From assembly GCA_964016885.1 (NCBI GenBank), contig OZ024743.1, forward strand, positions 215,946,001 through 216,010,000: a DNA stretch of 64,000 nt, given 5' to 3'. The notes under the pieces are model-generated. The model was not told the origin of the DNA, did no database searches, and saw only the letters and a list, made by a program, of their open reading frames with translations. The translations under genes were made by a program, and so were the position numbers. This DNA comes from Eledone cirrhosa (Eukaryota). Positions 3,586-51,460 of this stretch are shown here, piece by piece (position 1 is the stretch's first letter; each line of letters opens with the position of its first letter).

Positions 3586-6500
3586 GCAGACAACAAACAG
3601 GATAATTTTGGATTTAAAACCTATAATAACCCTCCGTGGAACCCAGAAATGCTACCCTTCGAAAATAATGTCTTGGAACTCATTCGGAGTATCAAATTTC
3701 GGAATAGGAGCAATTCCTTCCAGCAAGACCTGAAGAATAGAATTTGTTCTATTAAGGATTCTAACGCTGTGCACGTCAATTCCGACAAAACTGGCAACCT
3801 ATATCAAGGGGAGCGCAGTACTACCATCAACTACTACATAATGCTGTAACTAGGGATTACCGTAAAACTAATCGGAGCGTCATCAATGAAATCAACGATG
3901 CTGGGTTTAAAATCACATCTGATCTCAACATCATGGACCGGACCGAACCTCTGGACCCTATGTCTCCCCACTTTACCCTGAAGGATCACAAATCCAATTT
4001 TCCGAACAACCCCTCTATTCGGCTTATTAACCCTACGAAGTCCGATTTAGGTAGACTTAGTAAAACGATTCTTCATAGAATTATACCTGAAATTAGAAGT
4101 TTGGCCACTCTGGCACTGTGGAACAATTCCTTCGCGGTGATTGATTGGTTCAACGGCATATGTAACAAGGAACATTGCCCATTTATCCAATTCGACATCA
4201 ACAATTACTACTCCTCCATCACTTTACCACTTCTCCTTAGAGCTATCAATTTCGCTAAAACACTCACAGTGGTTAAGGATTTCGAAGTTGATGTCATCCT
4301 TAATGTCCGAAAGTCGGTTTTTAATTTCGACGACTCTATTTGGATTAAAAAATCCAATAGCACCCCATTCGATGTGAGTATGGACGCCAGTGACTCTGTG
4401 GAGGTTACTGATCTTATTGGCCTTTTCCTTCTTTTCTCTATCAAGGACGAAGTGCCCAACGCGGGCGGTGGTTTTTACCGTGAAGATGGTCTTTTGACTA
4501 TGACTAAGTGCGGACCTCGTGCTTGCGACAGGTTCAGAAAAGAACTCACACCATTCTTTAAAGGCTTCAACCTCTCTATACAGGTCGAGGCCAATCTCTC
4601 GGTTATTAATTACCTCGACGTTACCCTCAATTTATTGAATGGGTTGTATTACCCGTATAGAAAGCCGAATGATACGCTTAATTACATAAGTAAGGATTCC
4701 AACCATCCTGCCAGCATAACCAAGAACCTGGTAAAAAAACGTTTCATTGAGGCTTTCCCGTCTTTCCACGAACGTGCGCATTTTCACCGATCATTCCAAT
4801 TATTACAATGAAGCTCTTGCTCGAAGTGGATTTGTCGATAAGGTAGCTTATACAGATTACGAAAATAGACCTAGAAGAAACAGATCCCGTCTCAACTTGT
4901 TGGTTTAAACCACTATATAATATCGAGGTGGCCACACCATTAGCTAAGATATTTCTTTCCCTTATTACGAAGCATTTTCCCCCTACACATAAATATAGTA
5001 AAATTTTTAATAGAAATACTATTAACATTTCTTACTCTATGACTCCTAACCTTGCACATAACATCACAGCTTCAAATTTAGCTAAACTACCTAGCCGTAG
5101 GAGCACGTGCAACCCTGTAGTTAGTACTAACTGTAATTGTAGGAATCGGGATGATTGCCCCCTATCCAGGTAATGCCTCTCTAGTAACATTGTCTACAAA
5201 TGTAAGGTTGTAACACCCACGTCCCGTAGGGCCTACATAGGGTTAACCGCCAATAGTTTCAAGCAGCGTCTTTACATGCATACCCATTCTTTTCGTTACC
5301 CTCTAAGAAGGAATATGACGTCACTTTCAGCTTATATCTGGAGTCAATATAAGTTACACTGGGAGATCCTAGCTGGGGCTAGATCGTATAACGGAAATAA
5401 AAGACCATGTGACCTCTGCGCCGCTGAGGCCCTGGAAATACTCTACGCCACAGACCACATCTTAAACAAATAATCTGAGGCAATTTAGGCTTGTAAACAT
5501 AAATTGCACAAAACTTTCCTGTATTACAGCCCCACGATATACCCTAACGGATAGCACGATCTATACGTGGATATTTTACGTCTTGATGCGGGTGCTAAGT
5601 ATATGTTTTGTTTATTCCTTTACTTATTTGCATAGGTAAGTATATATTACCCGTATGTTTTGTGAAGGTATGTATACCTTCTCGTACGTATATTTGACTG
5701 TTATGGCGTATAATTTTTACATATTCTGGTATTTAGGGTTTGGCTATGTGTATACGGGAGTTTTGCGTCTGCGTGAGAATGGAGGCTCGTACGTATGGTG
5801 GGTGTGTGTATATGTGTACGTCTTGTTTTAGTTGACTTACGTCTCCGAACATTCTCTTTTACTCTTTTACCTGTTTCAGCCATCCGGCTGAGGCCATGCT
5901 GCGGCACCGCCTCATTGCTGGGGCACCGCCTCATTCATGTATGTATTTGTAGGTATGTGTGTGCGCTTGTTATATACGTATTTATTTACTTATATACGTT
6001 TATATAATTATTTATTTATTTGTACACAAGCATACACACACACACATATTTATATGTGCGTGATTTTGTATACCTATGGTAAGGTTTTGCGGATGCTTGT
6101 GTATGTACGTATCAGTTTGCGTGTATGTATTGATTTGTTTCTATTGCTTCTGTATTGTATCTATTTACTTTGTTCTTAACTCTGTAGCGTAGATTCATTT
6201 GGTCTCCTAGTTAGAATGCTATACCATTTACGTGGTTTTGTATTTGCGTGCTATTGTTCTCCACGCTCCACATATGACTTATTATCTTCGTTTTTTCGTC
6301 ACATTGCCAGAGAACGTCTCTATGCACCACCTAAGAAAATATTAGTCTACGACCTCTTTTATACCATAAACGTGGTTCTGTCTTTGCGCGTAATTGTTTT
6401 TCATCGCTCCTCTTAATGACGTATTATTCTTTTTTACCCGTTCTTTGCCAGCGAACGTTTCCACGAACCAAAGTATCGTTTTCCTGTCTTCCTCCGGTTG

Positions 6501-6615
6501 CAACGTTTTTTGAAATATCCAGTTCTGCTTTTACAGATTGACTTTGTGAGTTTCAGAAGATCCCGTTAAGGGTGAAAGCAGCGATTCTTTGCTTAAACTT
6601 TAATCTGTTATTTTA

Positions 6616-15930: not shown

Positions 15931-18900
15931 AAATTTCAGGTTATCAATAATGTAGTGATATTATATCGTCACGTTAGAGATGAACAGCGTACGTGTAGGT
16001 TTGCTCAACCAGTATAAATTATATTCCGGAGAAAATGTAGAAAAGATGAATATAAAATGAAAGTGATTTTTTTAAAAAGGAATTTATTAGGTATTGACAT
16101 ATGTTTCTGTAACAGACGGAAAACCTGTGTATCGCTGCTTGCGTAATCATATAATGTTAGCAAGTATTCGATAGCAAATGTATAATCAGTTGTCACTTCT
16201 TCAGAGATTTTGGATAAATTGGATAAAATCAGAAAAATTGAAGTATTTATATTAGTAATAGAGGAAGAAGAGATGGGATAGTATATGACAGATGGTAATT
16301 CAATTTACTGCTAAACAAGTATATAAAGGGTTTCTAATGAAAATACCACGAGTAAATGGTTCATTTTATCTAAATAAGAATGTTTGGGAGTGCCAATTTT
16401 AATCTCTACTTGACCAATTAGACAGTGGACAGGGCTGGTCATTTGGTGTAGTAGTATTAATTATAAAGTGTCAATTGAGGAAGGGGGAGATTTCGATTGC
16501 TACTGAATAACATCAATGCTAGTAGCCAGCTGGTATGTGCATTAGGGAATTGAATTAAGAAATCATAAATCTCATTTTATCTATAGCAGTTTATATTAAA
16601 TGGTAAATAATAGAAGAGTTGATAGGATTAAGACTAATAGAGAATGTTAATATCAATTTTGACAACCAAACGGAGATAGAGACGGGCGTTCAATCCTGGT
16701 GGTATTTATAATATGAAAATGTAGATTTTAAGCGATGGTTACAGTATAACGATCGCTCTATTCTGTTATTTAATAAAATGTTTTTGGATTTCATAATACA
16801 AAATAATTCTACATTACATAATTTACAAAATTCCTGTCCGTGGGAATATGGGGGGGGGGGGCAGCCCCTATTTTATCCCATTTAAGGTGAAATTGTTGGT
16901 TATTTTCACGCAGCTGCCAAGCCTTGTCTGCGAGTGTTGTTACATAACGCTGGTTTTCATGTTTTATCGAGTAACGATGTCTATAAAGGCGTGATTTGAA
17001 GGAGGTGGCTGTAGATCCCACATAGTACCAATTCTGTCTATCCGATTCGATAGTACATTTGTATACAATGTTGCGTTCAAGACACTGATTGTTCAACGGA
17101 CACATTCCTGGTTGGACACAGTTGCAATTATAATTTTGCGTTGTTGTATTGTCATGGATGGGTTGATGAGGTTGCTTAGGTAGGACCGGATGTTGTTTGT
17201 TGTTTTGTGATGTTATAGCTAATGTTTTACGTGTATTGTTATGTGTTGGAAGGCGTTTATACAGCCGTTTTGCTTTAAGCTTTTTTATATGTTGTTCAAT
17301 ATTAGGGGCGGTTGAATATGAAAGTCGAATAGTGTTAGGGTTTAAGATTTTATTATATTTATATGATGTTGGAAAGTGTTTTTTAACTAATCGAAAGAAT
17401 TGTGAGGATAGATTGGCCTTAATAGAGTTGTTATAGACCGGGTTGTACCATATATACTCTTTACATTGCCTTCTGTTTGGTGGTGTGCGACTATTATTGT
17501 GTCTATTGCGGTAGTGTATTTATGGTGGTGATTCTGTGCTATTTCTACTCCTATGGGATTTATTTTGAGTGTTTTGGTGATTTTCTACTATATACTCTAT
17601 ATTATCTAGGTGTCCGGCTTTTCTAAGTGCATCATCATAATATTCGGCATGTTCTTTGAAGGTTTGTTGGTTGGACGACAGGCGGGAGATTCTAAGAGAA
17701 ACATTTCTAGGGATGGATTTAATTATAGAGAGTGGATGGTTATAACTTGTATTTACATATTTAAGGTTCTCATTTAGTTTATGGAACGGTTTAATCGTAT
17801 CTGTATTGAGATCAAAGTAACATCAAGGAAATTGACCTCTTTGAGGTTATACTGAAATGTAATATTTAATCCTAGTTCCTTAAAAAGCTTTCTGATATTT
17901 TTACGCATCCTTTCTAAATTCTGGTTATTCATATGCTTAAGTAATAGGAGCGCATCATTACGGTAGATTCCACCGTGGAGATCCTTGAATTTTCCTTGTA
18001 GTCTGTGGGTGATATAAATTCCCACAAAATCTGTTACTTCCGCCGAGTCATTAGAACCCATAGTAATATCATAATTAGAAGGTCTATCTTTGCGAACCCA
18101 GTAGCTATTATGGAATTTAACTATAGTTTTCCTCGCTTCCATAATAATTTAAATTTCAGCATCCGTAAGGTCGGAATTAGCCTTAGCGAACGAAAGAGCT
18201 TCATGTAGAGTATTAGCTGAAATTGAGGAATAATATTCATCAATATCAAACTGAATAAATTTTGATTTTGTCTTATCAGTAATGTTATTAAACCATCTTA
18301 TTGCTTCATGAGTGTTACCCCATAGTTTAATTTCTACTTTAACCTTAATTTGCGGGATAATTCTGTCTAGTATATATTTGCTAATTTTGCCTATATCATA
18401 TTTAGAGGGGCATATAAGTCTAATCTTAGGGTTAGTATCGAAGTTTACCTTGTGGTCCTTCAGGTTGAAGGATGGTATAGCTGGTGTTAAGGGTTGCGTT
18501 CTATCGTCAATACAAAGTGTTTTAACAATTTCACATGCCGAGTTGTTGATGTTTTTAAGTGTAGCTTCATTAGTTTTCTTGTATTTTTTATGCAATTCCT
18601 TAAGGATGAAGTTATTGTAAGTGTCCACATCCATGGTATATACGTTTGACGTTTTGTCTGCTCTAACAATAATTCCATTGGCGTATTTAGATTATTATTA
18701 ATCAGTGTCTTGAACGCAACATCGTATACAAATGTACTATCGAATCGGATAGACAGAAGTGGTACTATGTGGGATCTACAGCCAACTCCTTCAAATCACG
18801 CCTTTATAGACATCGTTACTCGATAAAACATGAAAACCAGCGTTATGTAACAACACTCGCAGACAAGGCTTGGCAGCTGCATGAAAATAACCAACAATTT

Positions 18901-19809: not shown

Positions 19810-20215
19810 GATCTTAACAAATGGAAACTATATTTATAAAACCATATCTATTTTAATATACATATTTCAAGGATACCATGTTAAATTATGGTATGCTTTC
19901 ATCAGACAAAATACAATATATACCAGTTTTATATGTCTTCCAATGTCTTCGATGTCTTCCAAAAGTAACGGTTGCATTTTGAAAGGGTATGTCAATATTT
20001 ATTTATAAAACTGGTATATATTGTATTTTGTTTGAGGAAAGCATACCATCATTTAACATGGTATCCTTGAAATATGTATAATGAAATAGATATGGTTTTA
20101 TAAATGTAGTTTTCATTTGTTAATGTCGTATATTTACTCCAAATACTTGTCGTGTGCTTTATATCAGTTATAAAAATATTTGCTTGTTGTATCCCAACAA
20201 TTTAAATAGAACTTT

Positions 20216-21071: not shown

Positions 21072-21104
<33 letters not shown>

Positions 21105-21113
21105 ACAAGTAGG

Positions 21114-21214
21114 ACCCCGACGGCTGAGCTCAAGCCGTCTCGACGGCTAATTCTGGACTAAATTCAGTCCAGGAATAGCCGGCGTCGAAACGGCTTGAGC
21201 TCTGCCGTCGGGGT
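21114..21214. repeat. ~100-bp foldback made of two head-to-head 3' halves of the 44055-type HHR
   Basis: accccgacggctgagctcaagccgtctcgacggcta...tagccggcgtcgaaacggcttgagctctgccgtcggggt; both arms match 44103-44149. Confidence 0.85.
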
Positions 21215-21252
21215 TAAAGTGTGTCATATATATATATATATATATATATATG

Positions 21253-27771: not shown

Positions 27772-29164
27772 GTTAGGGCTATGTGCACTCTGAGATCAAA
27801 AGGCGATGAGGTGAACTTTATCTCTCAAACATTCCAGGTCAGTAAATGTGTACTGGGGTAGTTTTTCCTTTATGTTTCTTTCTCATTTTCGTATTTGCAC
27901 TTCATCATTCTCTCTCCTTTTCTGGAAGAAATTTGCTGTAACCCACCTCTAGATGAGATGAGTACCACTAGATTTAAAATCCTCAATAAAAGGTGTATAC
28001 AATGCGGAGCCCCAAAGAATCAGTCTGGAGGCACGGGATCATGCATGCATTCATATATATATATATAAATATATATATGTATTATGTATATGTAAATATG
28101 GGGGGGGGGGGTATCGGTAAGGATGGGTGGTTGTGTGTGAGTGTGTGTGAAATGAGTTGGAAAAAGACGAGAAATTTAATTCATGCAAGCGTCAGTCGGC
28201 GCATATAAATACAGAAGGCAACTGCAATACTAATATGATTTTTCTACTTTTTTTATGAATGCTGCAGTCTATTATTAAGTATAAAAGTCTTTCGCTTCAC
28301 TTCATTTGAAAAAAAGTTAAAAACAGTTTTGAAAGGTAAAGATATTTGAAAAGATATGTCATGTTTCAGTAATCATTTACACAACTTTGTGTTAGTTCTT
28401 ATATTTATTTTATTTATTTGTATTTAGAGTAGATTTATAAATATTAGATTAAAACTGGTATTTTATTCAAATTGAACATGAACCAGAAACTGAGATGAGA
28501 CAAAACAAAATGAAAAACAAATATTAAATTTATGAAAATAAGTCAAATGAAATAGACACTACATAAAGAGTGAAAATCGATTAAATGATTTCAAAAGTGC
28601 AGCTGACATTTTTCTGATTGAAAAAAAAAGTCACTATATCTATATTAAAAGTAAGTTTCAATATTGTTACATGCAACGTGTACTTATGAATAGGTTATCC
28701 AATATTTATTTTTTTTGTGAAAGACAGTATGATATGAATTGTTTGAATTCACTCCTATTTCTAGGGGATCGATAGATCACGTAGATTTTTCTCTTCTCTC
28801 GAGGTGTTTAGAGGAACAAATCTGGATATATAATATTGTCTCTCAATTTTTGTTCTTTTGGATCTGAAACGGTTTAGAATTGTCACACTTAGGGACATAT
28901 ATACATAGTCATACATTCATACCTTCCGACCGTCATATATATATATTTCTCTCTCTCCCTCTCCCTATATCTCTCTCTTTCACTCTCTCTCTAGATATCT
29001 CCCCCCTCTCTCTATTTATATATATATAATGTGGGGATTAGTGTGGTATGGGTAAAAAAGTGGTCCACTATGGAAGTAGGAGCTAAAGAACAAAGAAAGA
29101 ATGGTAAGGGACCAGGTGGCCCATAAAGCACCAGAGAACTCGTTACTTAGCGTAGTAGAGTAGG

Positions 29165-29230
<66 letters not shown>

Positions 29231-31473: not shown

Positions 31474-31480
<7 letters not shown>

Positions 31481-32497
31481 TTAGAAACACACAGATACAT
31501 GCGGACACACACATATATACATGAATGCATCCGCACCCAACTGTGAGTTAAGGGTGCCAACTTCACCGGTGTTGCTCAATGAATGACTGGGACAGACTAA
31601 TTCAGTTTGAACCAGACTGAACCAGTATCAGAGTTAAAAATACATTATGAAGAGAGAAGAAACATTTAGATATAATTAGTAATAAAATGTATCATACCTA
31701 AACTGTTCCTAAATTCCTCGACTACGTAGTTTCGTGGCATAAACAAAAACAATATATCAAAGATATAGAGTCCTTGCAAGGTCTGCCGACTTATCAAGAG
31801 GATACCTCATTTTACTAGTCTCAAGAACGCGTCTACACGACGTGAGAAAGAATCCCAAAAGGCGGAGGGGGAGACAGTCACGCGATATAACGGTCGAGAA
31901 ACAGAGCTAAGCCTCTTATAACCACGAAGAAAATACCACGGAGGCGGAGGGGGTATTCATATCGAGGCCGTAGAAGAGGTAGTGAAGAAGGCGAGAAGTA
32001 TGAGTAATGGAAGCTTTCCAGTTGTCCCCACACTTCAAAGATTGCTCGACCAGAGGGAGTTATTAATATATTTAGAAACACATAGATACATGCGGACACA
32101 CACATATATACATGAATGCATCCGCACCCAACTGTGAGTTAAGGGTGCCAACTTCACCGATGTTGCTCAATGAATGACTGGGACAGACTAATTCAGTTTG
32201 AACCAGGCTGAACCAGTATCAGAGTTAAAAATACATTATGAAGAGAGAAGAAACATTTAGATATAATTAGTAATAAAATGTATCATACCTAAACTGTTCC
32301 TAAATTCCTCGACTACGTAGTTTCGTGGCATAAACAAAAACAATATATCAAAGATATAGAGTCCTTGCGAGGTCTGCCGACTTATCAAGAGGATACCTCA
32401 TTTTACTAGTCTCAAGAACGCGTCTACACGACGTGAGAAAGAATCCCAAAAGGCGGAGGGGGAGACAGTCACGCGATATAACGGTCGAGAAACAGAA
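31474..32497 (-). mobile_element. Non-coding partial-tandem element (591-bp unit x ~1.7), one HHR per unit, flanked by (TA)n; retrozyme-like
   Basis: ttagaaacac.. at 31481 and 32072, near-identical; no coding signal. Confidence 0.85.
31715..31802 (-). ncRNA. Type I HHR, U3-A8 core variant, 57-nt stem II (second copy 32306-32393)
   Basis: tcctc-TTGATAA-gtcggca...tgccac-GAAA-ctacgtag-TC-gagga; perfect stem I; palindromic stem III. Confidence 0.75.
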
Positions 32498-42959: not shown

Positions 42960-43000
<41 letters not shown>

Positions 43001-43004
<4 letters not shown>

Positions 43005-43543
43005 TAAAACATGTCTATAGAATCACCAGATAAAATATATACCATTTCCTCTCCCAATTAGCATAATTAACTATATCAAAAATCGAATAGACCAGGCTAT
43101 AAGAATATGGCTTCTATGAAGAAATCTCCAACAAATAACCGAAACAAGCCCTTCGCGTCGGCTACGACGGAATATTTATCGAATATTTCGACAGCATAAT
43201 CGCCCAGATAGTCAATTAAACAGAATTAGGTGTAAAATAAACTAGGAGAAAAGAGAATACATTTATTTACCTCTACCATGGTTTCGTCCGCATTTTGAGA
43301 TTTCCAATATCTTCGGAAATTCGAGCATCGGACTCTTCAGGAGTTTGCTCTAATCTAGACAATAAATTTTCCAAAGTGATCGCGCCAAGAATACATTCAA
43401 AAATGGCTAAGAATCGTGAAGTAGCAGCGGTCAGGTTGGAAGGAGTGTGGTAGTTACTTATGGCTGGTGGCTTTTTGCTAGAAAGCACAGCACAATACAG
43501 CCAAATTTGTATCTCAACCTAATGGGAGATTATTACATATAAA

Positions 43544-43597
<54 letters not shown>

Positions 43598-43969
43598 CAT
43601 ATATACATATACGTGTTTTGCAACGGGTCACTTTGTGGCTCAATGAAAAGTTTATAAATTAAATGATCAGAGCTATATATCATAAAACATGTCTATAGAA
43701 TCACCAGATAAAATATATACCATTTCTTCTCCCAATTAGCATAATTAACTATATAAAAAATCGAATAGACCAGGCTATAAGAATAAGGCTTCTATGAAGA
43801 AATCTCCAACAAATAACCGAAATAAGCCCTTCGCGTCGGCTACGACGGAATATTTATCGAATATTTCGACAGCATAATCGCCCAGATAGTCAATTAAACA
43901 GAATTAGGTGTAAAATAAACTAGGAGAAAAGAGAATACATTTATTACCTTTACCATGGTTTCGTCCGCA
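43001..43969 (-). mobile_element. Non-coding partial-tandem element (678-bp unit) with HHR; retrozyme-like
   Basis: cataaaacatgtc.. at 43003 and 43681; second copy truncated inside HHR stem II and followed by a short inverted piece gggcttgtttcggtt. Confidence 0.8.
43271..43343 (-). ncRNA. Type I HHR with 48-nt stem II
   Basis: ctc-CTGAAGA-gtccg...atttccga/ttggaaat...cggac-GAAA-ccatgg-TA-gag; palindromic ACCATGGT. Confidence 0.8.
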
Positions 43970-44054
43970 GGGCTTGTTTCGGTTGCAAATTAGTAATTTG
44001 CAAACACAGAATTACTACTGATTTTTGACAATCACTTTGACCATATATGGAATT

Positions 44055-44148
44055 ACCCCTTGAGAAGATCGGCTATTTAAATACCAGGATAAATTTTCAT
44101 TTAGTCCAGAATTAGCCGTCGAAACGGCTTGAGCTCAGCTGTCGGGGT
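44055..44148 (+). ncRNA. Type I HHR, U3-A8 core variant, 54-nt stem II
   Basis: acccc-TTGAGAA-gatcggcta...tagccgtc-GAAA-cggct/tgagctc/agctg-TC-ggggt. Confidence 0.75.
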
Positions 44149-44321
44149 CTTACTGGGTCCTATTACCCACTCTACTACCTCAAGTATTGAGTACTTTGGT
44201 GCGTTATGGTCCACCTGGTTCCTTACCACATTTCCTTCGTTTATTTAGATATATAATTATTTATATATATATATATATATTTATTTATATATATATACAT
44301 ATTCATTTATATATATATATG

Positions 44322-44388
<67 letters not shown>

Positions 44389-44467
44389 TTATAAATATGT
44401 ATATATATATTTATTTATAAATATGTATATATATATTTATTTATAAATATGTATATATATATTTATT

Positions 44468-44574
<107 letters not shown>

Positions 44575-45198
44575 ATATATATATATAAGCCTTCGATAAC
44601 GAATGACCATGGGTTTTGAATCAAACTTATTCTCTGAGGCACAAGCCTAGGCAATCTGATTTATTTCTGAAGAATAGCCGTTTCCCATGTATACTAGACT
44701 TCTCTATCCACGGCAAATATGTTGTCCAAAGAAAGATTAAATGCTGAATCAGCTTGGCATCAATGACGTAATGTACTCATTTCTACAGCTTAGTGAGCTT
44801 AAACAGCGTGGAATATAATGACATGCTCCACGATTAAATGCATTACACTACGCGCAACCACACCTATGTATATCGAGTGGGTTAATCGGGCGGGTGCTCT
44901 ATGGATTAATACTGGATGTTGGTTTACAAACACACCGAACATTATAATAAATGTTCGGTGAAACCATACGTACATATATATATGTGTGCATGTATGTATA
45001 TATATATACATACTACTGTACGTCTGTCTACATATATGTATGTACGTGTGCATACTTATATATATGTATATACATATATATGTATATATATATATATATA
45101 TATATAAAGTAATTCCGTCGGAAAAGTCCAGGAAAAAAGAGTGCTCTGTGTATGTAAACAGAGCTTAATAGTTATGTAATAAATATTTATTACATAAC

Positions 45199-48372: not shown

Positions 48373-49409
<1,037 letters not shown>

Positions 49410-49413
<4 letters not shown>

Positions 49414-51460
49414 TAAAACAAAATGAAAACGAAATTTCATTTCTCACTCTTAGTATGGCACTTACTTAAATGTAAGTATGCATGTATACGTACATACATA
49501 TATGTATACAGACGTACAGTAGCATGCACATATATACATATATATATATATATATATACACATATATATACATATGCATACAGGTACACATACATATATG
49601 CACGTATCAGTTTAGCGGCGCTAACGTCGCTTTGTTCGTTTGTAAACAAACTGAACAGCCTGAATTTATGCCATACGGTGTTAAGGCAACCACGTCACCT
49701 TTTTGTTCAACACTGACACAGGAACGATGTACTAGTTTCAAGCTTGTTAGCTATCATCAGCACCGTTTACCCATCTGCCAGATAGTTGAACGTTCGAAAG
49801 TATATACTTTCCTTATGAAAATTAACGGCTGAGCAGCCTAATTTGCATATTGAGTGAGTTAAATCGGTTAGGCATACCGAAAACGATAAATTAAAACAAA
49901 ATGAAAACGAAATTTCATTTCTCACTCTTAGTATGGCACTTACTTAAATGTAAGTATGCATGTATACGTACATACATATATGTATACAGACGTACAGTAG
50001 CATGCACATATATACATATATATATATATATATATACACATATATATACATATGCATACAGGTACACATACATATATGCACGTATCAGTTTAGCGGCGCT
50101 AACGTCGCTTTGTTCGTTTGTAAACAAACTGAACAGCCTGAATTTATGCCATACGGTGTTAAGGCAACCACGTCACCTTTTTGTTCAACACTGACACAGG
50201 AACGATGTACTAGTTTCAAGCTTGTTAGCTATCATCAGCACCGTTTACCCATCTGCCAGATAGTTGAACGTTCGAAAGTATATACTTTCCTTATGAAAAT
50301 TAACGGCTGAGCAGCCTAATTTGCATATTGAGTGAGTTAAATCGGTTAGGCATACCGAAAACGATAAATTAAAACAAAATGAAAACGAAATTTCATTTCT
50401 CACTCTTAGTATGGCACTTACTTAAATGTAAGTATGCATGTATACGTACATACATATATGTATACAGACGTACAGTAGCATGCACATATATACATATATA
50501 TATATATATATATACACATATATATACATATGCATACAGGTACACATACATATATGCACGTATCAGTTTAGCGGCGCTAACGTCGCTTTGTTCGTTTGTA
50601 AACAAACTGAACAGCCTGAATTTATGCCATACGGTGTTAAGGCAACCACGTCACCTTTTTGTTCAACACTGACACAGGAATGATGTACTAGTTTCAAGCT
50701 TGTTAGCTATCATCAGCACCGTTTACCCATCTGCCAGATAGTTGAACGTTCGAAAGTATATACTTTCCTTATGAAAATTAACGGCTGAGCAGCCTAATTT
50801 GCATATTGAGTGAGTTAAATCGGTTAGGCATACCGAAAACGATAAATTAAAACAAAATGAAAACGAAATTTCATTTCTCACTCTTAGTATGGCACTTACT
50901 TAAATGTAAGTATGCATGTATACGTACATACATATATGTATACAGACGTACAGTAGCATGCACATATATACATATATATATATATATATATACACATATA
51001 TATACATATGCATACAGGTACACATACATATATGCACGTATCGTTTTCGGTATGCCTAACCGATTTAACTCACTCAATATGCAAATTAGGCTGCTCAGCC
51101 GTTAATTTTCATAAGGAAAGTATATACTTTCGAACGTTCAACTATCTGGCAGATGGGTAAACGGTGCTGATGATAGCTAACAAGCTTGAAACTAGTACAT
51201 CGTTCCTGTGTCAGTGTTGAACAAAAAGGTGACGTGGTTGCCTTAACACCGTATGGCATAAATTCAGGCTGTTCAGTTTGTTTACAAACGAACAAAGCGA
51301 CGTTAGCGCCGCTAAACTGATACGTGCATATATGTATGTGTACCTGTATGCATATGTATATATATGTGTATATATATATATATATATATGTATATATGTG
51401 CATGCTACTGTACGTCTGTATACATATATGTATGTACGTATACATGCATACTTACATTTA
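49410..51460 (-). mobile_element. Retrozyme-like array: ~3.4 direct 478-bp units (49410-51041) plus an inverted unit (~51040-51460), flanked by (TA)n
   Basis: Identical ORF-track entries at 49423/49901/50379/50857; one HHR per unit; no coding capacity. Confidence 0.9.
49723..49767 (-). ncRNA. Minimal Type I HHR (copies 50201-50245 -, 50679-50723 -, 51160-51204 +)
   Basis: aacggtg-CTGATGA-t-agct/aaca/agct-t-GAAA-ctag-TA-catcgtt; 7-bp stem I, palindromic ACTAGT stem III, GUA site. Confidence 0.85.

Follow-up and report, generated by a model that had tools for sequence, protein, structure and literature searches.

A predicted type I hammerhead ribozyme in a putative Hydra-clade Penelope-like element of Eledone cirrhosa and the changing state of its 3-8 core pair

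Near 44 kb in a 64,000-nucleotide stretch of the Eledone cirrhosa genome (the window) lies a motif that an earlier note read as a hammerhead with a U3-A8 core and with the same stem II base as a second motif at 31.7 kb, and the note proposed from the two that they form a distinct hammerhead subclass. The locus raises the question of whether this is a hammerhead at all, what carries it, and whether its core marks a subclass. Every element named in the note (stem I, the UUGAGAA core, helix II and stem III) was found in place, and the pieces are collected in Table 1, with core positions numbered by the standard hammerhead scheme. The loop of stem III had been called palindromic; a palindrome is present (GAGCUC or UGAGCUCA), but the 7-nt loop UGAGCUC itself is not palindromic. 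The minimum-energy fold is a three-way junction, with three helices around the core and helix I open as in type I. The core reads U4 G5 A6 N7, A9 and G12 A13 A14, with A15.1-U16.1 and H17, and both a bulge in stem I and a conserved stretch in loop 2 are present. A Watson-Crick 3-8 pair exists in the window copy and is absent from the C3.A8 and U3.G8 subfamilies discussed below. An accidental fold in AT-rich repetitive DNA would account for the ordinary folding energy (z -0.96) and for the missing Rfam hammerhead match (44000-44235 gave one weak, unrelated match and no hammerhead call, and none was among the matches listed for the window, 150 of 335), but a strict descriptor that finds only the 44-kb motif and two 31.7-kb copies in the window gave 0 matches in 200 dinucleotide shuffles of it (a loose descriptor gave 16 in 200), thousands of genomic copies stand against controls at 0, and the motif has a fixed place in an element. 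The shuffle test and the fixed position refute a chance fold, whose probability we regard as negligible. Two-sided change within the 44-kb family affects 1 of 28 pairs, below the shuffles, so that conservation and the known consensus are what support the fold. As modeled, the motif is a genuine type I hammerhead fold of a known kind in a known retroelement clade, with self-cleavage predicted.

Table 1. Positions of the predicted hammerhead, its carrier and related features in the window.
Feature	Position	Strand	Basis
Retrozyme-like tandem repeat of 591-nt units; U3-A8 hammerhead motifs 31715-31802, 32306-32393	31480..32497	-	
5'-truncated copy of the putative Hydra-clade Penelope-like element: end portion of the pseudo-LTR and 80-nt tail, then (TA)n	43991..44241	+	248/251 identity to intact L098
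Predicted stem I extension: GGAAUU 44049-44054 with 44155-44160, separated from stem I by a 6-nt bulge	44049..44160	+	90% of cells paired, no two-sided change
Type I hammerhead motif, U3-A8 core	44055..44148	+	sequence, fold, descriptor scan
Stem I, ACCCC / GGGGU	44055-44059 / 44144-44148	+	sequence
5' core UUGAGAA (U3 44060, G7 44064, A8 44065)	44060..44066	+	sequence, subfamily states
Helix II, GA-U-CGGCUA / UAGCCG-UC	44067-44075 / 44113-44120	+	sequence
Helix II overall: G10.1-C11.1, variable 10.2, bulge, CGGCUA/UAGCCG helix	44067..44120	+	alignment, fold prediction
Helix II loop, 37 nt with predicted inner hairpin	within 44067..44120	+	fold prediction
Predicted competing hairpin AGCCGU-CGAA-ACGGCU, which would bury G12-A14	44114..44129	+	fold prediction
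GAAA, then stem III ACGGCU / AGCUGU with loop UGAGCUC	44121-44124 (GAAA), 44130-44136 (loop)	+	sequence
Segment of GAAA, stem III with palindromic GAGCUC in its loop, and GUC	44121..44143	+	sequence, dimer energy
GUC triplet; predicted cut after 44143	44141-44143	+	sequence, hammerhead numbering
80-nt tail between the two preferred element ends; equals start of element body	44161..44241	+	copy ends, L098 layout, X1 loose ends
(TA)n tract after the truncated copy	44249-44587		

The other copies of the motif point to its carrier. A search of the same genome gave at least 70 matches (40 of 229 candidates scored), many of them an inverted piece plus a direct piece within (TA)n, and at one locus RT-thumb-like and GIY-YIG-like reading frames lie upstream of the motif. 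An ORF-region search with the RT/GIY-YIG-like stretch returned 3,698 candidates, and in all 30 of the loci examined, which were chosen by ORF similarity, the motif follows the ORF on the same strand. The intact element L098 runs motif, 716-aa ORF, motif, with a 3,542-nt unit between the motifs and the predicted cut 190 nt before the ATG; there, as in the 30 loci, a terminal repeat that carries the hammerhead flanks the RT-endonuclease ORF, and the insertions sit in (TA)n. Craig et al. (2021, PMC8557442) give as marks of the Hydra clade DKT, RW(K/R), CxCX5C, an endonuclease with CxxC and CxH, and (TA)n. The protein P0001 has DKT (HSDKTG), RWR where the Hydra clade has RWK (a conservative change), the linker CNCPDRSIC, a C-terminal GIY-YIG-like VIY..AYIG, and CNLC..E..N..CKH for CxxC..E..N..CxH. 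The likeness to the clade as described in those passages of PMC8557442 thus covers DKT, the CxCX5C linker, the C-terminal endonuclease, (TA)n and the inverted truncated copy plus tail, and P0001 clearly resembles Hydra-1_Obim by eye over the part displayed there. The element departs from the same description in its 3.5-kb unit, against "generally <3 kb," and in its 80-nt tail, against 30-40 bp. Pfam assigned 0 families to the 716-aa ORF, so the assignment to a Hydra-clade Penelope-like element is based on these motifs and the by-eye comparison and is best called putative. Translation from the cut end through a frame open upstream of the ATG was considered and set aside: the frame is open in L073, L077, L095 and L098, stops interrupt it in L197 and in one of the two L217 copies, and it is not a conserved feature.

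The window holds only the end of such an element. Its 251 bp match intact L098 at 248 positions, which makes it a young truncated copy; we take it for a passive insertion that belongs to the youngest subfamily. Copies of the element end preferentially 17 nt after the predicted cut (46 of 125) or 97 nt after it (39 of 125), and in the public run X1 loose (TA)n ends occur at 44163 and 44241. In that run the depth is also about 20-fold higher 3' of 44100. Short inverted pairs of the family's end are common, and one of them, at 21099-21227, breaks off within loop 2 and has no 5' core; a stretch at 29043-29169 on the minus strand matches the family's tail and 5' region at 80% and is probably an old relative. 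Just upstream of the insertion, at 42996-43292 and 43674-43969, a stretch of about 296 bp that is unrelated to the element is directly repeated with 98% identity.

These observations fit a scheme in which transcripts through a tandem copy, or read-through transcripts, would be cut after GUC at both motifs to give unit-length RNA, which the element's own reverse transcriptase would then copy into (TA)n sites. Such a unit-length RNA model for Penelope-like hammerheads was proposed by Cervera and De la Pena (2014, PMC4209133). Self-cleavage, which we infer, is probably aided by two copies pairing through the palindromic stem III. The predicted probability of the active fold for single copies is 0.45 in the youngest subfamily, 0.04-0.07 in the old U3 and U7 forms, 0.006 in U3-G7-C10.2 and 0.001 in C3; all subfamilies but the youngest are predicted to misfold as monomers, with the competing hairpin or a core-loop pairing winning. 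The stem III segment has a predicted self-dimer energy of -26 to -31 kcal/mol versus -5 to -7 for each hairpin, which makes cleavage in dimers the likely route for the older forms. A pseudoknot between ACCAG in loop 2 and a 3' CUGGU was rejected, being present (by eye) only in the youngest subfamily and absent in older ones. Taken as a whole, we have good confidence that the 3' pseudo-LTR of a high-copy Hydra-clade element carries a type I hammerhead fold here, one that likely cuts transcripts to unit-length RNA, and that its core pair likely went through the series described next.

The genome holds thousands of further members of the family. Each pattern was controlled with its reversed pattern, and all controls stayed at 0. 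For the 44-kb family there are 4,094 matches to the G7 pattern, 2,141 to the non-G7 pattern with A8, 1,484 with C3 (A8 in 100 of the 100 matches listed) and 78 without A8. Among these last, U3-A7-G8 occurs in 17, and 13 of the 17 have a diagnostic loop in common. Because the patterns are not quite identical, the counts cannot simply be added up; the patterns also fix several core and helix II positions, so that subfamilies changed there escaped sampling. All four bases occur at N7 across subfamilies, and every multi-copy subfamily seen has a pyrimidine at position 3 and a purine at position 8. Run X1 has T>C at 44060 in 24% of the depth and no listed variant at 44065, although X1 may be the source sample and the C3 allele there is not surely independent.

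How the pair changed can be read from trees of two parts of the element. For the 3' region, a tree built after masking of positions 3 and 8 retained 111 of the 143 copies and supersedes an earlier one that had dropped 26 of 92, divergent copies included. It places the C3.A8 copies as a grade between old and young U3-A8 groups, and a single U3 clade is rejected in a 64-row subsample (AU test, p 7e-42). The ORF tree (19 rows) likewise puts C3 between two U3 groups and rejects a single U3 clade (AU p 2e-50). Median terminal branches are 0.054 in the old U3 group, 0.041 and 0.029 in the C3 groups, and 0.017-0.019 and 0.007 in the young U3 groups, the youngest having been chosen as best hits and being biased young. 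Shared ORF alleles lie mostly at third codon positions (185:45:34 versus 168:152:137 for singletons). When a sister family serves as outgroup, the rooted ORF tree (32 rows) has a basal U3.G8 grade followed by U3-A8 (100/98), C3.A8 (100/99) and U3-A8 again (100/99), with the root resting on one distant sister family and the U3.G8 copy L268 falling inside the A8 clade. An AU test for a single clade of A8 lineages was uninformative (p 0.49); a shorter endonuclease alignment joins C3 and young U3 at 96/96 and gives no firm position for U3.G8. The likely course is therefore one master lineage that passed from C3-G8 through U3.G8, U3-A8 and C3.A8 back to U3-A8 while the element kept spreading; the C3-G8 start is taken from the sister family and published Hydra elements, and the U3.G8 root is less sure than the later steps.

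A ladder of this kind could also be a product of recombination, with the C3.A8 copies being passengers with a dead ribozyme that U3-A8 elements mobilized in trans. In favor of this, rearrangement is seen in Penelope-like insertions, template switching is plausible, only 5 C3 copies with an ORF entered the main ORF trees, and only 8 C3-specific shared ORF alleles are present. Yet the 3'-region and ORF trees agree, the C3 copies branch successively along the trunk with support of 97-100, and third codon positions account for 7 of the 8 alleles, and we consider passenger copies highly improbable. With an autonomous C3.A8 lineage preferred, the fuller reading is of a dated, stepwise record in which C-G gave way to U.G, then to U-A, then to a long autonomous C.A phase (well over a thousand copies) and again to U-A, with the C.A hammerhead still cleaving through palindromic stem III dimers. 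We offer this last version tentatively, and would not be surprised to see it fail. A protonated C.A mismatch can mimic a wobble pair.

The constraint on the motif during these steps was assessed on stem I, stem III and UC, the positions outside the genome search patterns. Majority changes there number 0 of 28 at the step into the C3 phase versus 18 of 187 in flank and loop (p 0.07), 0 of 28 versus 29 of 256 at the step within it (p 0.04), and 0 of 29 versus 51 of 314 at the step out of it (p 0.008); between the old and the youngest subfamily, the changes are 2 of 29 versus 77 of 214 elsewhere. The structure remained under selection, with stems I and III unchanged through the mismatch phase. 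What was selected might be a noncatalytic role, such as RNA dimerization or helping the reverse transcriptase to recognize the end of the element, with cleavage dispensable. A C3.A8 lineage with a predicted monomer misfold did leave at least 1,484 matching copies and all the younger subfamilies sampled, metazoan Penelope hammerheads are described as cleaving poorly in vitro (PMC4209133), and Naiad elements thrive without canonical hammerheads, whose role Craig et al. call unclear, allowing for mere parasitism of the elements (PMC8557442). Such a role is nevertheless rather unlikely in our judgment, as N7 is free while the GUC triplet and the stems are kept, position 3 returned to U, and the pyrimidine at 3 and purine at 8 in every multi-copy subfamily seen are what is expected if catalytic geometry matters. 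The selected function would instead be cleavage: strict Watson-Crick pairing at 3-8 was relaxed twice with pyrimidine and purine kept throughout, which suggests that slow cleavage sufficed.

The proposal of a subclass can now be weighed. That the 44-kb and 31.7-kb motifs represent separate multicopy families, both U3-A8, holds up, with thousands of matches each. A 591-nt tandem repeat makes up the 31.7-kb family; many of its copies are 100% identical, and its motif has 6,202 matches, against which 17 exceptions lack A8 and 18 lack U3. Its arrays meet (TA)n at unit positions of about 270 and 435-437 (17 and 12 of 34 ends, 60 loci), which places these preferred ends 80 and about 246 nt downstream of the predicted cut. 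A common ancestor with U3-A8 and a helix II base of 2 bp and a bulge would explain why a covariance model (R1) built from 39 copies of the 44-kb family, balanced across subfamilies, weakly finds the 31.7-kb motifs at 16-21.6 bits (E about 1e-3 at 21.4-21.6 bits) while listing no match at the places of the other hammerhead-like motifs mapped in the 19 loci it was run on. Because of this cross-match we take the resemblance of the two small modules as real, and the small module itself may be of common descent. U3-A8 is also nearly fixed in the 591-nt repeat (35 exceptions versus 6,202), A10.2 recurs in 5 basal copies of the 44-kb family so that the 2-bp base may be a favored state, and a preprint by Li et al. 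(2026, 10.64898/2026.07.22.740005) argues that such repeats derive from Penelope-like ends.

The shared base is where the proposal gives way. The 2-bp-and-bulge form does occur in the window copy, but its GGC helix is out of register with that of the 31.7-kb motif, lying farther from the core by one pair, and the second pair, A10.2-U11.2, forms in 4 of the 39 aligned copies of that balanced sample, being rare because position 10.2 is A, C or U depending on the subfamily. Between the 591-nt repeat and the element there is no homology beyond chance (best E 1.7), and the 44-kb motif ends a 3.5-kb coding element rather than a short noncoding tandem unit, the latter being what the 31.7-kb family has in common with retrozymes. 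A third U3-A8 family (L033:1700-1810 and L224-L243) is of the minimal type, with a plain 4-bp helix II, a CCGG stem III and no bulge. It has 12,651 genome matches, often as inverted pairs, and among the loci examined no parent ORF could be convincingly linked either to it or to the 591-nt repeat. C3.A8 on the same scaffold (1,484 matches) means that U3-A8 is not tied to the bulged helix II, and by the trees U3-A8 likely arose inside the 44-kb family from U3.G8. U3-A8 cores are published as well, including in Schistosoma Cercyon elements of another build (PMC4209133). The subclass reading is weak, and common ancestry of the two motifs as one subclass is quite unlikely: U3-A8 is a family-level state and not a subclass marker.

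Placing the motif among known systems shows what is familiar in it. Cervera and De la Pena (2014, PMC4209133) describe U3-A8 in the Cercyon elements of Schistosoma mansoni (about 1,300 hits), whose hammerheads have a long helix II and a short helix I, and a bulge in mid-helix II in the Drosophila virilis hammerhead. The 44-kb motif is like the pseudo-LTR hammerheads of those passages in being type I with a 5-bp helix I, a long helix II, G10.1-C11.1, a palindromic loop 3 and U3-A8, and unlike them in its full 6-bp stem III (versus minimal), its 37-nt loop 2, the lack of an extra base between 9 and 10.1, and its U3.G8 and C3.A8 subfamilies. Natural U3-A8 hammerheads, with in vitro activity cited from an earlier study, appear in Perreault et al. 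(2011, PMC3088659); the core covariation to U3-A8 is common to those hammerheads and the 44-kb motif, and the passages concerned name no natural C3.A8 or U3.G8 core. In File S2 of Craig et al. (PMC8557442), every Hydra row is C3-G8, and U3-A8 is missing for the clade from this table, which lists canonical motifs only. Non-LTR retrozymes, as characterized by Cervera and de la Pena (2020, PMC7229834), are tandem noncoding units with one type I hammerhead each. The 31.7-kb family fits the metazoan ones in these respects, with a 591-nt unit that exceeds the 150-450 bp given there and a U3-A8 core, while the carrier of the 44-kb motif is an autonomous element with coding capacity.

A U3-A8 core is therefore not new by itself; new is the series of subfamilies at the 3-8 pair. 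Among the titles and abstract beginnings listed for open-licence papers, U3-A8 came up only for the 2014 paper and no C3.A8 or U3.G8 series in a retroelement came up, and passages of PMC7151607, PMC6155905 and PMC3884650 add nothing on a 3-8 mismatch. Subfamilies of one element that differ at this pair on a nearly unchanged scaffold, each of them amplified, would allow a test of whether cutting is required for jumping, and from the cleavage rates of the subfamilies one could derive a minimum activity that still permits retrotransposition. If the series is true, this set of natural alleles, all built on one scaffold, would reveal the amount of cleavage on which a Penelope-like element depends, and also whether ribozyme cores in nature covary by way of wobble-type mismatches. 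Canonical descriptors and Rfam miss many such motifs, as the three U3-A8-type families have more than 20,000 pattern matches in this genome.

Other hammerhead-like motifs and elements share the window. A second Hydra-like element of the sister family (3598-5551 and 6549-6599, plus strand; 46-60% protein identity to P0001) has a terminal hammerhead-like motif that combines C3 and G8 with an A in place of U4. L252 carries the same variant, so that both copies seen have it and C3..G8 with U4A may be fixed in that family. On the minus strand at 16693-18682 is a more distant Penelope-like ORF (34-47% to P0001), followed at about 16090-16205 by a C3-G8 core with a long helix II and GAAA-CAUAUG-UC, where stem I is not evident. 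The 478-bp units of a tandem array at 49408-51046 (3.4 copies, 99% identical) gave no hammerhead in a motif scan. A weak C3-G8 hammerhead-like candidate, seen as a single copy, starts at about 48035 on the plus strand, and another motif at 20024-20088 (plus strand) has U3.G8 and is probably a mutated copy, since its sister copies in L072, L143 and L166 have C3-G8.
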